NCBI GenBank assembly: GCA_023144635.1
Contig: JAGLFH010000036.1
Span: 2,645 to 66,644, forward strand
DNA from: Candidatus Auribacterota bacterium
Lineage (GTDB): Bacteria; Auribacterota; JAFGBW01; JAFGJP01
Direction of reading: 5' to 3'
Length of the DNA: 64,000 nucleotides
Shown: in pieces, positions 23,917 through 28,885 of the stretch
Numbering within the stretch: the stretch's first letter is position 1
Layout: each line of letters begins with the position of its first letter
Notes under the pieces: generated by a model
What the model was told of the DNA's origin: nothing
The model's input: the letters and a program-made list of their open reading frames with translations, nothing else
Database searches by the model: none
Position numbers and translations under genes: made by a program

Positions 23917-25053
23917 ATGACCAATAATTACAAAGTTTTACTCATTACAGGAGCCGGTGTTTCGGCTCCTTATATACTTAGTGACTGCAAAAGCGCTCTT
24001 GAGGAAATAGGGTGCGAAGTCATGACAATGCCTGCATCAAATGACCCTTTGGAGTTTAGATCAATTCTTACCACTATTAAACCGCATTTTATTCTATCTC
24101 TTGACCATGCCGGAATTAACGATGAAATTATAGCACAGGAGAAGGTACCTTGTTTCTCTTGGTTTGTGGACAATCCTTTTTATTTTGTGAATGAATCCAA
24201 TAAAAAGCCTTATAGTTATTTCCTGGTCACAGATAAATCATATATTAAAGAATTACAGCACTATGGCTTTAATGATGTTTTTTATCTCCCTCTTGCAGCA
24301 AACCCAAAAAGAATGCATAATTTAAATTTTTCAAACATCAGACAAGCTGACATTTCATTTGTAGGCACTCTTAGTAAACGGCATACTGAGTGGAGAATCG
24401 AGCGAAATAGAGAAGCAACCTCTCCCACAAAAGAAATACTCGATCTTCTTGTTCATCTTAAAACACAGAAACCAAATATGACATTTGACGAGATGTTTAA
24501 GTTTTGTGATGAAAAATTTAAAGAACAGATACTCCAGAAGTTAGATATGAAAGCTCGTGGCTCTATTGAATACCGTATTGACATGGAAACAAGTTCTTAT
24601 TTCCGAGAAACTTATATACGCTCACTTGCAGATTTTAACGTTTCTATATTTGGAAATAATGAATGGAAAAAAGTACTCCCTGAACATCATTTTTTTGGAG
24701 GTAACATTGATTACGATAAAGATATAGGACACTTATACCGCATTTCAAAGATCAATTTAAACATTACCCGCACACAAATACAAACAGGCATAAACCAGCG
24801 CATTCTTGACATTGCAGCAACAGGTGCCATTTTTTTAACAGACTACAGAAAGACTACACAAGATTTTTTTGATTGTGATCTTCGATATCTAATGTACCAT
24901 AACGAAAATGACCTTAAGGAAAAAGTAGAATACTTTTTAAAATCCAAAGAAGTCCGTATATTTATCGGTAATGAGCTTTTTGATTCTATCAACAATAAAC
25001 ATACATATGTCCACCGAATGAAAGAGCTTATTGATATATACAAAAAAGTTTAA
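23917..25053 (+). CDS. CgeB-family (DUF3880-type) glycosyltransferase-like protein
   Basis: C-terminal YRISKINLNITR...GINQRILDIAATGAIFLTDY...HTYVHRMKEL matches the CgeB-like GT1 C-terminal pattern. Confidence 0.55.
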   Translation: MTNNYKVLLITGAGVSAPYILSDCKSALEEIGCEVMTMPASNDPLEFRSILTTIKPHFILSLDHAGINDEIIAQEKVPCFSWFVDNPFYFVNESNKKPYSYFLVTDKSYIKELQHYGFNDVFYLPLAANPKRMHNLNFSNIRQADISFVGTLSKRHTEWRIERNREATSPTKEILDLLVHLKTQKPNMTFDEMFKFCDEKFKEQILQKLDMKARGSIEYRIDMETSSYFRETYIRSLADFNVSIFGNNEWKKVLPEHHFFGGNIDYDKDIGHLYRISKINLNITRTQIQTGINQRILDIAATGAIFLTDYRKTTQDFFDCDLRYLMYHNENDLKEKVEYFLKSKEVRIFIGNELFDSINNKHTYVHRMKELIDIYKKV

Positions 25054-25232: not shown

Positions 25233-26717
25233 ATGAAAATTTTGCTGGCAGGATACAACATTGACACCCAAGTACTAAAAGAATATGAAAACATTGCAGG
25301 TAAACGAGCCGATGCAACCCCGGAAACACTTTCAGCCTCATATGCAAGAATAAGCCGTGATCCGCGACCCATTGATGAGCTTAGAGACGATGCTCGGATA
25401 GAAATAGAAAAGTCCCGAAAATCAAACCGTGCCATAATCTTTAAAATGGGACATCACTCTGTTGCAGAACATGCTGTTTTTAACTTTGATATTATTGGTG
25501 TTTCCCGTTTTGCTATAGAACAGCTTGAAAAATTAAGACTTTGCTCTTTCACAGAAAAATCACAAAGATATATTACACTTGAGAATGACTTTGTCATACC
25601 TCAAGAAATACAAGAGACCGGTTTTGATAAGGAATATACTGATATGGTAAAAGAACAAAACCGTCTCTACCATGACATGAATGATAGACTGACAGAACAT
25701 GTGTTTAGTAAGCATAGCGAACTTGCTAAGGATCCTAAAAAAAGAACCCTACTTGAAGGATGGGCAAAAGAAGATGCTAGATATATTACATCACTTGCCA
25801 CAGAAGGTCAGCTCGGAATGACCATTAATGCAAGGAACCTTGAGCTTATGTTTAGACGCTTTGCATCACATCCTCTTAATGAAGTACGTACCATAGGTAA
25901 AAATATTTATACACTTGTAAAAAATGTGGCCCCATCTATCATTCTTTTTACTGATGCCAATGATTATGATGCAAAAACACTCAGCTCTCTTGAAGAATAT
26001 TTTAAGAACCGTAAGATGCAAAGCTCCGATGTAGCACCTTCAGCAGAAGTCCTTCTTCATCATTATACAAACAATGCAGATGATCAACTTGTAGCCTCTA
26101 TCATGCACCATGCGACAAGTAAAAGCTTCTCGGCTTGCCGCGATGAAGTAGATAAAATGACTCCTCAGGAAAAAACAGATATAATTAAAAAAACTTTCCA
26201 GTATATGGAGTTCTATGACTCTACTCTTCGTGAATTTGAATTTTTAAATCTCGTATATGAGCTTACGATCTCTTCAAGCTGCTTTGCCCAGCTAAAACGC
26301 CATAGAATGTCAACACCGGTAACACAAGACTATGATCCTTTACTTGGGCTTACAATACCTGATTCAATAAAAGAGATCGGCTTTGAAAAAAGGTTTCTTG
26401 ATGTAACAGACAAAACAGAAGAATTATACAGGAGAATAAAAAAAGTCTCTTCCACAGCCTCGCCTTATATTCTTACAAACGCTCATAGGCGACGTGTACT
26501 TTTTGGCGTAAACGCGAGGGAACTTTACCACATTACACGTCTTAGAGAAGATGCACATGCACAATGGGATATACAAAACATATCAAAAAAAATGAGGATT
26601 GAGGCTGAAAAAGTAATGCCTCTTACAATGATGTTTATAGGCTCAAAAGAAGTATATCCGATAAAATTTAAAGAGATCTTCGGAAAAGAACCAAAATTCA
26701 CTGAAATACCAGGATAG
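25233..26717 (+). CDS. Tandem two-domain ThyX-like protein (FAD-dependent thymidylate synthase family, Thy1 fold x2)
   Basis: Half 1: HHSVAEHAVFNF...LRLCSFTEKSQRY, where RHR is degenerate and SQRY is kept. Half 2: RHRMSTPVTQDY...NARELYHITRLREDAHAQWDIQ, where RHR and HAQWDIQ are kept and SGRY is lost. Confidence 0.7.
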   Translation: MKILLAGYNIDTQVLKEYENIAGKRADATPETLSASYARISRDPRPIDELRDDARIEIEKSRKSNRAIIFKMGHHSVAEHAVFNFDIIGVSRFAIEQLEKLRLCSFTEKSQRYITLENDFVIPQEIQETGFDKEYTDMVKEQNRLYHDMNDRLTEHVFSKHSELAKDPKKRTLLEGWAKEDARYITSLATEGQLGMTINARNLELMFRRFASHPLNEVRTIGKNIYTLVKNVAPSIILFTDANDYDAKTLSSLEEYFKNRKMQSSDVAPSAEVLLHHYTNNADDQLVASIMHHATSKSFSACRDEVDKMTPQEKTDIIKKTFQYMEFYDSTLREFEFLNLVYELTISSSCFAQLKRHRMSTPVTQDYDPLLGLTIPDSIKEIGFEKRFLDVTDKTEELYRRIKKVSSTASPYILTNAHRRRVLFGVNARELYHITRLREDAHAQWDIQNISKKMRIEAEKVMPLTMMFIGSKEVYPIKFKEIFGKEPKFTEIPG

Positions 26718-26736
26718 TAATAAGCAGCAAAAAAAT

Positions 26737-27108
26737 ATGAGTAATAACATTAAATTTATTACTAAATCCATTTCATTTAATGCAAAGTTAAACGATTGCC
26801 CTTGTGCTAAAGAAATATTTAATAATCTTCCAATAATTTCTACTGTAAGTACTTGGGGTGATGAAATATATTTTCGTACAAATCTGGATATATCCGTTGG
26901 CTTACCTACAACTGATGTTAATATAGGAGATATCGCTTTTTGGCCATCAGGAAAATGTATCTGTATTTTCTTCGGAAAAACCCCCATAAGCACTGGTTCT
27001 AAGCCGGTCCCTGCAAGCAATGTATTTGTAATTGGAAAAACTGACTGCTTACCAGAGGAATTAAGAAAAATAAGTGATTCAGAAGATATAAGTGTTGAGA
27101 AAGCATAA
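26737..27108 (+). CDS. Cyclophilin-like-fold protein (PF04126-like)
   Basis: WGDEIYF...GDIAFWPSGKCICIFFG pattern typical of the cyclophilin-like family. Confidence 0.5.
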   Translation: MSNNIKFITKSISFNAKLNDCPCAKEIFNNLPIISTVSTWGDEIYFRTNLDISVGLPTTDVNIGDIAFWPSGKCICIFFGKTPISTGSKPVPASNVFVIGKTDCLPEELRKISDSEDISVEKA

Positions 27109-27169: not shown

Positions 27170-28885
27170 TTAGGGTTTTTCGCTTGAGTCCTGTGTCTTA
27201 AGTCTTGTGTCTGTACTTTTCCCGTTTCCTGTTAGCGGAGAAGCAATTGCTTTTAAAACATTAAAGAAAAAACCTGCAGCTTTTTTAGGTATACGCTCTA
27301 CTGACTCTTTACTAAACTTGGGATTTTCAATTGTACCATTTATCCTTAATGTAACTAGATGCTTTATGATCTCGTTTGAAATATCTCTGGTAATATCACC
27401 AACAAGAGGAATAGAAAGAAGTTTTGAACGGCTAAGTTCTGTAGTAAATAAAAAGTCCAACTTTCCGGAATTATCAACACTGCCTTCTCCATAAAAATTT
27501 ACATTTTTGCTCTCAATCTCTATTTCATTAAGATAAAGATCTCCTTTATTATATGACCAGACTGCATTTGCTTTTTTTGCTTCTTCCTTATCAGGAAGCT
27601 CAAAATTCAAAAAATTAAAAACCCCTGCAAAAAGCGGCAATTTAAATAGTTTTCCCTTTCTTATATGAGCTTTGCCCTTCGCATTAAACTCCCAATTATT
27701 TTTTTTAGAAGCTTTCAACACTGTATCAAGAAAGAATAATCCATCCATAGACTCACCCTTGTCTCTATATAAAGAAATTACATCCGGCAGACCAGCATTA
27801 CTAAAATTCAGCTCAATTTTATACAGATCATCAAACACAAAATGAACATTTCCTTTCATATCTCCATTTAGGGTTTTAGCTTGTATCTCATTAACATCCA
27901 GATACTTGTTATCAAAATGACTTTTTGCGTACAGACCCGTAAAAGGAAGCAGGATCTTTTTTATTTGCATAATCCCTTTTAGGTCTTCTGCCAAAATATT
28001 TTTCTTCTCAATATATATGTTTCCTGAAAGGTTTTTTACCCCGAGTGAATCTTCCTTTGCAAAAAAATTAAAATCTTTAAAATTAATATTATATTTTGGA
28101 GAGGTCCAAACACCCTTTGTTAAAAGCACAGGAATATCAAGGCCTAAAGACCCCTTGAATTTATAATGACTGATAAAAGGTAATATCTTTTTGATAAATC
28201 TTTTATTAAAGTCGTTTTTAAGAGAGATCTCAGAAAAAGAATTAACTGCATTAAAATCCTTATTTTTTAGACCAATATCACCTTTTGAGGAACAAATACC
28301 TATATTCTCCTCTTTTCCATTTACAGAAAAAAGTATTTTATCACCCAAAAGATCCAGTCTCGCAAAAATATCATTTAATCTGAAAGTATTGACCTCATTT
28401 TTAAGACTCAGCCTGATCTTGGAAAAAGAATCCTTTATAAAAAGTGTTCGAAATGGAAGTTTTATAGGTTTCCTGTGAGAGGTCTTTTTCCTTACGATAT
28501 TTTTTATAATATTCCATTCATTCTTTGAATTAAGCTCCAAATTCAGACTAAGACCACTTACTCTTATTTCTGGAATGGGACTAGTCAAATCATTGATCCA
28601 ATGATATGGCAATGGAATTTCAATTTTTTTTACACATAAAAGAGATCCCGGTTTAGGATCAAAAGCATCTTCTATCATTACATTTAGAAGATATATCTTA
28701 TCTATACGTATTCTAATATCTTTTATATCAACCTTACCATGAAATATTTTTTGGACTTCAGTAAGGACATACTGGTCAATGATATGCTTGCATTGCAGAA
28801 CAAGAAGTAATGTCAAAACAACGAGCAAGATCACTTCCAGCAAGTAAAATATTATTTTTTTTATACGCTTTTTCATACAGACCAC
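27170..28885 (-). CDS. Membrane-anchored AsmA-family-like protein
   Basis: N-terminal TM helix. Long beta-rich periplasmic region. C-terminal LRINGTIENPKFS resembles the AsmA/TamB C-terminal motif. Confidence 0.4.
   Translation of the reverse strand: MVCMKKRIKKIIFYLLEVILLVVLTLLLVLQCKHIIDQYVLTEVQKIFHGKVDIKDIRIRIDKIYLLNVMIEDAFDPKPGSLLCVKKIEIPLPYHWINDLTSPIPEIRVSGLSLNLELNSKNEWNIIKNIVRKKTSHRKPIKLPFRTLFIKDSFSKIRLSLKNEVNTFRLNDIFARLDLLGDKILFSVNGKEENIGICSSKGDIGLKNKDFNAVNSFSEISLKNDFNKRFIKKILPFISHYKFKGSLGLDIPVLLTKGVWTSPKYNINFKDFNFFAKEDSLGVKNLSGNIYIEKKNILAEDLKGIMQIKKILLPFTGLYAKSHFDNKYLDVNEIQAKTLNGDMKGNVHFVFDDLYKIELNFSNAGLPDVISLYRDKGESMDGLFFLDTVLKASKKNNWEFNAKGKAHIRKGKLFKLPLFAGVFNFLNFELPDKEEAKKANAVWSYNKGDLYLNEIEIESKNVNFYGEGSVDNSGKLDFLFTTELSRSKLLSIPLVGDITRDISNEIIKHLVTLRINGTIENPKFSKESVERIPKKAAGFFFNVLKAIASPLTGNGKSTDTRLKTQDSSEKP

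Follow-up and report, generated by a model that had tools for sequence, protein, structure and literature searches.

A tandem two-domain ThyX of Candidatus Auribacterota with active-site residues divided between its halves

The 64-kb stretch of Candidatus Auribacterota DNA analysed here (in the following, the window) carries at positions 25233 to 26717 of the forward strand a thyX gene, the 494-amino-acid (aa) product of which consists of two fused and diverged copies of the flavin-dependent thymidylate synthase domain ThyX. As judged by alignment, the residues binding flavin adenine dinucleotide (FAD) and deoxyuridine monophosphate (dUMP) are complete only when both halves are taken together, the flavin-side residues being retained in the C-terminal and the dUMP-side residues in the N-terminal half, and this reciprocal division is a property of the whole family of tandem ThyX proteins. 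It is quite probable that the protein is a genuine flavin-dependent thymidylate synthase working as a homodimeric pseudo-tetramer with two complete active sites instead of four.

The active site of ThyX, an antibiotic target, is difficult to dissect since any mutation strikes all four sites together. In the natural fused form, the flavin-side and the dUMP-side roles are set in different domains, which therefore allows for asymmetric mutagenesis and for a direct count of the sites needed. The presumed function of the gene is unchanged by the finding of the split, which constitutes a testable case of subfunctionalisation after fusion. A double-length ThyX has already been studied biochemically in Chlamydia, the family is large and annotated, and the gene itself and its annotation are already public.

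One reading frame with two ThyX domains

The gene is a single open reading frame (ORF) that runs uninterrupted from ATG to TAG, and the sequence AAGGA is found a few bases 5' of the ATG. The start codon is right since the N-terminus MKILLAGYNID fits the consensus MKV.LAGYN.D of more than 100 relatives. Pfam Thy1 (PF02511) matches two stretches of the protein (E 5e-61, 206 bits with a cutoff of 24.8), and with 132.7 bits the protein is also above the cutoff (87.9) of the NCBIfam thyX equivalog TIGR02170. In profile comparisons with hhalign, half 1 matches Thermotoga maritima ThyX with 97.7% and half 2 with 98.6%, and the two halves match each other with 97.3% at about 24% identity; the relevant stretches of the T. 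maritima sequence were verified against printed alignments. The initial annotation, made from the sequence alone, had described a 494-aa ORF with two Thy1/ThyX domains and proposed to align each half with T. maritima ThyX; the description is borne out, and both halves are homologous to the T. maritima enzyme.

An AlphaFold2 model of the chain reaches a predicted local distance difference test score (pLDDT) of 95.3 and a predicted template modelling score of 0.92, and predicts a ThyX fold. As the model is confident over the whole chain, the two halves are expected to pack as one unit. In a Foldseek search with this model the only matches in the PDB were single-domain ThyX chains, with E down to 2e-10, each covering about half of the model and with TM-scores of about 0.7 by target length and about 0.35 by query length; no tandem ThyX was found in the PDB by this search. 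The nearest solved structures are the single-domain ThyX proteins of T. maritima, Mycobacterium tuberculosis, Helicobacter pylori and Corynebacterium.

The window protein has a 100% identical counterpart at NCBI, deposited as 'MAG: FAD-dependent thymidylate synthase [Candidatus Aureabacteria bacterium]', MAG denoting a metagenome-assembled genome; this lineage is now the phylum Candidatus Auribacterota of the Planctomycetes-Verrucomicrobia-Chlamydiae (PVC) group. The identical protein is found with the same neighbours on several contigs (eight with the identical protein) from one metagenome set. The initial annotation had also considered that the ORF might be two separate genes and a stop misread. 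That two adjacent genes were joined by a sequencing or assembly error is refuted, and retains practically no probability, by the uninterrupted frame, by the same architecture in hundreds of independent assemblies and by the eight contigs.

Tandem ThyX is a large and old family and not a peculiarity of the source genome. The best 120 database relatives are all 484–529 aa long and 55–70% identical to the window protein, and stem from Omnitrophota, Margulisiibacteriota, Saganbacteria, Latescibacteria and PVC MAGs. When 1.84 billion cluster representatives were searched exhaustively, 423 matched at E <= 1e-30, of which the best 150 mostly have two domains and 440–573 aa, the exceptions being about a dozen shorter, apparently truncated sequences and two sequences of 795–797 aa with an intein or homing-endonuclease insertion. 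In a genome scan, tandem ThyX relatives were found in at least 394 species-level genomes, the hosts including Aminicenantes, Syntrophales/Smithella, Elusimicrobia, WOR-3 and some archaeal MAGs. Tandem ThyX is likely to be the thymidylate synthase of many uncultured lineages, such as Omnitrophota, Aminicenantes, Margulisiibacteriota, Syntrophales and some archaeal MAGs, and its reading as a two-site enzyme helps to interpret their metabolism.

Division of the site residues between the halves

Each ThyX active site is located at the junction of three subunits (PMC6514825, PMC3498832, PMC11940539). In M. tuberculosis (Mtb) ThyX, subunit A contributes R95-H96-R97 to the phosphates and the ribityl moiety of FAD, with R95 and R199 also contacting flavin and dUMP, while S71 and R190 of subunit B bind FAD, and R87, the backbone of Q103, S105, R107 and the Y108 lid of subunit C bind dUMP (PMC6514825). 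An inhibitor structure of the ThyX of Paramecium bursaria chlorella virus 1 (PBCV-1) agrees with this arrangement, one monomer contributing Gln75 and Arg182 and another Ser88/Gln89 (PMC3498832), and in T. maritima (Tm) the conserved His53 lies on the third monomer (PMC11940539). The window protein shares fold, ligand residues and presumably the three-subunit construction of the site with the canonical homotetrameric enzymes (TM0449, Rv2754c, H. pylori ThyX and PBCV-1 A674R). However, whereas these have about 220–250 aa and four identical subunits and sites, the window protein has two diverged copies per chain, each with a partial set of residues, and is predicted to have at most two complete sites per pseudo-tetramer.

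The features of the gene are given below; all are on the forward strand, and conservation was counted in 255 aligned full-length tandem ThyX relatives being 35–70% identical to the window protein.

25233–26717, forward: thyX, tandem two-domain flavin-dependent thymidylate synthase, 494 aa plus stop (ORF, two Thy1 matches, TIGR02170, identical NCBI protein, AlphaFold2 model)
25233–25982, forward: half 1 (aa 1–250), ThyX domain with the dUMP-side residues and the His/Ser region (end-to-end alignment with Mtb ThyX 64–227; hhalign)
25452–25460, forward: H74-H75-S76, corresponding to Mtb H69/S71 (Tm H53/T55), the 'third subunit' residues near FAD/folate (H74 in 255/255, S76 in 250/255)
25506–25508, forward: R92, corresponding to Mtb R87, the dUMP ligand of subunit C (255/255; S or A at the matching position of half 2)
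25530–25571, forward: KLRLCSFTEKSQRY, degenerate RHR (K100-L101-R102) followed by the intact loop S110-Q-R112-Y113 (SQRY in 248/255)
25779–25781, forward: R183, corresponding to Tm R147 and Mtb R172 (254/255; its half-2 counterpart, aa 411, is variable)
25827–25835, forward: N199-A-R201, corresponding to Mtb N188/R190, the FAD phosphate ligand of subunit B (N in 249/255, R in 253/255)
25983–26045, forward: linker between the halves (aa 251–271), the least confident part of the model (pLDDT block about 75), of varying length among relatives
26046–26714, forward: half 2 (aa 272–494), ThyX domain with RHR and the flavin-side residues (hhalign 98.6%; phmmer match to Tm 157–208)
26289–26306, forward: Q353-L-K-R356-H357-R358, intact RHR and a Gln corresponding to Tm/PBCV-1 Q75 (RHR in 255/255, Q353 in 254/255)
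26307–26333, forward: MSTPVTQDY, degenerate active-site loop, two residues shorter, lacking the equivalents of Ser88 and Arg90 and retaining Tyr alone (alignment)
26511–26519, forward: N427-A-R429, second copy of NAR (N in 246/255, R in 252/255)
26544–26567, forward: R438-EDA-H442-A-Q-W445, R438 corresponding to Tm R174 and Mtb R199 (dUMP activation), followed by HAQW (R in 254/255; R, H, Q and W together in 220/255)

Half 1 accordingly reads KLR-x7-SQRY (aa 100–113) and half 2 RHR-x5-TQDY (aa 356–367) and REDAHAQW (aa 438–445), so that a contiguous RHR-x7-S-x-R-Y is present in neither domain alone and is complete only with both halves combined. The active-site loop of half 1, T107-E-K-S-Q-R-Y113, is a normal variant, as S-Q-R-Y is also found in Mtb ThyX and Ser88-Gln89-Arg90 occupy the same positions in PBCV-1 ThyX. 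Among the 255 relatives, aa 100–102 of half 1 read KFR, HFR, RFR and the like, RHR being outside the 12 commonest triplets; R102, the equivalent of the third residue of RHR, is invariant, 77% of the sequences have K, H or R at aa 100, and aa 97, at the position of Gln75/Glu92, is variable. In turn, the half-2 residues aa 348, 364, 366 and 411, at the positions of R87, S88, R90 and R147, are variable and the canonical residue is never among the commonest ones, while the His position (aa 331) is hydrophobic and the Ser position (aa 333) is Arg in 251 of the 255 sequences. Neither an Arg at the R90 position of half 2 nor an RHR in half 1 occurs among the commonest motif combinations.

If a canonical residue is scored as kept when present in at least 90% of the 255 sequences, half 1 keeps all ten residues with a role in subunit B or C and one of the five with a role in subunit A, and half 2 keeps five of five and three of ten, respectively (p = 0.004 and p = 0.026, post-hoc Fisher's exact tests on the kept-residue counts). 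Mapped on the published roles, the composite set of FAD and dUMP ligands is complete, with all A-role residues in half 2, all B- and C-role residues in half 1, and each of them at least 97% conserved.

These counts bear on most of what had been claimed initially about the motifs. That half 1 retains S..E.SQRY and has lost RHR holds true, but the replacement is K100-L101-R102 with an invariant last Arg and not LRL as had been read. HAQWE is indeed absent from half 1, which has SHPLNEVR at this place; as a sign of loss, however, its absence is not diagnostic because the active Mtb ThyX reads EHADVEIR there. The description of half 2, with RHR and AHAQW retained and TQDY in place of SGRY, agrees with the alignment, RHR being present throughout and the TQDY loop lacking Ser and Arg. 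Complete motifs in both halves, the outcome named as contrary to the reading, are not present in the window protein, and the expectation that only half of the four sites would be complete is supported by the complementary retention of residues, a pattern conserved throughout the 255 sequences.

The same division is found in a more distant clade. Searching plasmids with tblastn revealed two-domain ThyX proteins of 516–567 aa that share 22–27% identity with the window protein and without exception bear the annotation FAD-dependent thymidylate synthase, with Bacillus thuringiensis, Bacillus licheniformis, Paenibacillus, Euzebya pacifica, Miltoncostaea oceani and Parabacteroides distasonis as hosts. 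Four of these loci, on large plasmids of cultured bacteria, were used for comparison:

L084, 2752–4455: distant tandem thyX
L085, 1324–2874: distant tandem thyX
L086, 2414–3994: distant tandem thyX
L087, 2231–3850: distant tandem thyX

In all four proteins, half 1 carries S-x-R-Y and the R147 equivalent and half 2 carries RHR and the R174 equivalent, which speaks either for a great age of the split or for its repeated origin. The plasmid protein of Bacillus thuringiensis retains the other half-1 residues as well as AQW. In contrast, half 1 of the Euzebya, Miltoncostaea and Parabacteroides proteins has Asp in place of the His, lacks the R87 equivalent and has GQ in place of AR, and their half 2 lacks HAQW; these three proteins share an N-terminal F-A-R-Y-S-R-S motif. 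The Euzebya gene is located near dcd. Among phage matches no two-domain ThyX was found, all of them being single-domain proteins.

A 46-aa probe comprising the NLPEVVKGALFSRYSRS region matched only short fragments annotated as partial thymidylate synthase, and many entries of 40–80 aa named 'thymidylate synthase, partial' (P0274–P0376) are N-terminal fragments of FARYSRS-type tandem ThyX. These fragments come from Actinomycetota, Acidobacteriota, Chloroflexus and Rokubacteria, and the FARYSRS clade is therefore also widespread.

Proposed assembly and the second pair of pockets

From the two domains, the reciprocal pattern, the predicted fold and the confident packing of the halves we infer the dimer, the number of sites, the domain in role B and the enzymatic activity as follows. 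With RHR and R438, half 2 would act as subunit A alone and provide the flavin side, and half 1, with R92 and the S-x-R-Y loop, would act as subunit C alone and provide the dUMP side. Half 1 also has the full set of subunit B, that is the His/Ser residues and NAR, a role of Mtb His69 in subunit B being probable. Because each site takes three domains, the chain would have to dimerise to be active, and as the A–C and A–B relations are reciprocal pairings in a 222-symmetric tetramer, a dimer of the fused chain would have two sites. Two chains would accordingly pair to a pseudo-tetramer in which each of the two catalytic sites is made of one C-terminal domain and one or more N-terminal domains, and the other two pockets, with the N-terminal domain in role A and the C-terminal domain in role C, would be devoid of every dUMP ligand. 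Role B would most simply be assigned to the N-terminal domain of the partner chain, where every canonical residue is present, and alternatively to the C-terminal domain of the partner via R333 and R429; both the role-B domain and the interface within the chain are proposed here from conservation.

A comparable solution is known from the monomeric dUTPase of herpesviruses, in which an enzyme with sites between subunits underwent duplication and fusion and the catalytic motifs became divided between the halves. However, its fold is unrelated, and it has one active site per chain in contrast to two per dimer as proposed for the window protein. In the open literature no description of a tandem, fused or duplicated ThyX was found, Stern 2010 and the Dictyostelium ThyX paper being silent in this respect. 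Likewise, no description of an explicit division of the three subunit roles between two halves was found there, older subscription papers lying outside this scope, and the division is not claimed to be undescribed.

A double-length protein that has been studied is that of Chlamydia trachomatis (CT632/CTL0897), recorded as an FAD-dependent thymidylate synthase of 529 aa and 60.9 kDa and found in the proteome. C. trachomatis has ThyX and lacks ThyA and Tdk; a double-length ThyX is known to suffice as the sole thymidylate synthase. According to a citing reference, the catalytic mechanism of the chlamydial enzyme was the subject of a paper in 2005, and the enzyme was purified and assayed again in 2012. 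CT632 resembles the window protein in its double length (529 and 494 aa), its annotation and its host from the PVC group. Chlamydial ThyX has been reported to be too divergent for ThyX trees, and CT632 may therefore belong to the more degenerate FARYSRS-type clade rather than to the family of the window protein. No Chlamydia names were among the matches listed in the homologue search, two sets of 20 cluster representatives having only MAG and archaeal names.

Several points weigh against the two-site enzyme proposed here. The choice of the domain in role B is ambiguous, as in half 2 the position of Ser71 is taken by an invariant Arg (R333) and NAR is likewise invariant, and in three of the four distant tandem proteins the NAR arginine is present only in half 2, which favours the C-terminal domain in this role. 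In half 1, R102 and in most cases R209 persist in spite of an A role that seems to be lost, so that the other two pockets may be more than vacant remnants. The activity, the cofactor and the oligomeric state are predictions from sequence, for the window protein and its close relatives alike, and the link to CT632 consists of length and annotation. Finally, thyA and a second thyX were searched for in only 64 kb of the genome, which equally leaves room for the paralogue considered in the next section.

The retention of R102 and, usually, of R209 in half 1 and of Y367 in half 2 might also be taken to indicate that the substitutions are tolerated and all four sites are working. However, counterparts of Arg87, Ser105, Arg107 and Arg172 would be missing from the reciprocal site, as would two of the three RHR residues, and in T. 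maritima ThyX the exchanges S88A, R90A and Y91A strongly slow the dUMP-dependent step, which makes four working sites a very remote prospect.

More can be said for the idea that the two degenerate pockets have been repurposed as accessory sites for a phosphate-bearing ligand, such as a second FAD, reduced nicotinamide adenine dinucleotide phosphate (NADPH) or a regulatory nucleotide, beside the two catalytic sites, which would separate functions that overlap in one pocket of ordinary ThyX. Several residues facing these pockets are invariant (R102, R333, N427, R429, H74, S76 and R201), the aforementioned K, H or R at aa 100 is frequent, and NADP+ is able to occupy the FAD site of Mtb ThyX in an FAD-like pose (PMC6514825). 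However, a function in the catalytic sites or in folding could likewise account for every one of these residues, the distant tandem clade has lost several of them, and the idea draws on conservation. Such a repurposing is therefore considered unlikely, and the assembly with two catalytic sites is preferred.

Genomic context and thymidylate supply

The neighbours of thyX on the same strand are:

23917–25053, forward: gene coding for a protein with DUF3880 (also listed as YkvP_N) and Glyco_trans_1_2 domains, a CgeB-like architecture, 179 bp upstream of thyX
26737–27108, forward: gene coding for a cyclophilin-like protein of 123 aa (PF04126, Cyclophil_like), starting 19 bp past the thyX stop

The domain matches agree with the initial description of these neighbours as a CgeB-like glycosyltransferase gene and a cyclophilin-like gene, the latter of which may be co-transcribed with thyX. 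Neighbourhoods were compared in the best 80 loci of the genome scan (L001–L080), all from MAGs. The pairing of thyX with the cyclophilin-like gene is confined to contigs of the same organism (L081–L083) and was found at none of the 80 related loci, nor did any of these have the glycosyltransferase-like gene next to thyX, and a functional tie of thyX to its glycosyltransferase-like and cyclophilin-like neighbours is rejected on these grounds. At 10–18 of the 80 loci, from Aminicenantes and related lineages, purN, purL, tyrS, rtcB, archease and a PolX-type polymerase were read from the sequence nearby, which looks like lineage synteny and not like a dedicated operon.

Some ThyX-like enzymes serve secondary metabolism, e.g., those of the polyoxin PolB type. 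While PolB-type enzymes reside in biosynthetic gene clusters, the thyX of the window does not, its neighbours coding for glycosyltransferase-like, cyclophilin-like and membrane proteins.

A six-frame motif scan and a tblastn search of the 64-kb window revealed neither thyA nor folA nor another thyX. A thyA hidden in the window is thus rejected, and the earlier statement that none is visible there stands. It might still be argued that the protein is a non-catalytic or differently specialised paralogue, acting, e.g., on another nucleotide, and that deoxythymidine monophosphate is supplied by a thyA or canonical thyX elsewhere in the genome, in favour of which are the restriction to 64 kb, local neighbours unrelated to nucleotide metabolism, and the precedent of an atypical Corynebacterium ThyX in the PDB (3ge9, 3fnn) that is dispensable for thymidylate synthesis. 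However, the composite site has every canonical FAD and dUMP ligand in strictly conserved form, the protein passes the TIGR02170 equivalog cutoff, and the family is found in at least 394 species-level genomes beside housekeeping genes (purN, purL, tyrS), the local neighbours being unconserved. Together with the chlamydial precedent of a sole thymidylate synthase, this renders a paralogue of other function improbable. For the same reasons, the suggestion of the initial annotation that the gene context hints at a non-canonical function is not followed here; several lines, namely the complete and strictly conserved composite site and the equivalog score, point to a canonical function.

Inteins are typically located in catalytic motifs of essential proteins. 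In one of two homologues with insertions (P0238, 795 aa), half 1 is split by an insertion of the LAGLIDADG type, taken to be an intein, at GHA/C...N/SVAEH, i.e., at the His/Ser site, and in the other (P0173, 797 aa) the half-1 intein resides at HRL/C...N/CSFTEKSQRY, directly past the invariant Arg. As supporting evidence, these positions at half-1 motifs count towards a canonical function.

Two further reading frames were noted on the reverse strand next to thyX:

26643–27020, reverse: ORF of 125 aa, antisense to the 3' end of thyX and to most of the cyclophilin-like gene
27170–28885, reverse: gene coding for a protein of 571 aa with an N-terminal hydrophobic segment and a sub-threshold match to DUF748 (21 bits with a cutoff of 50)

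The first of these has most likely arisen by chance, the DNA being AT-rich.

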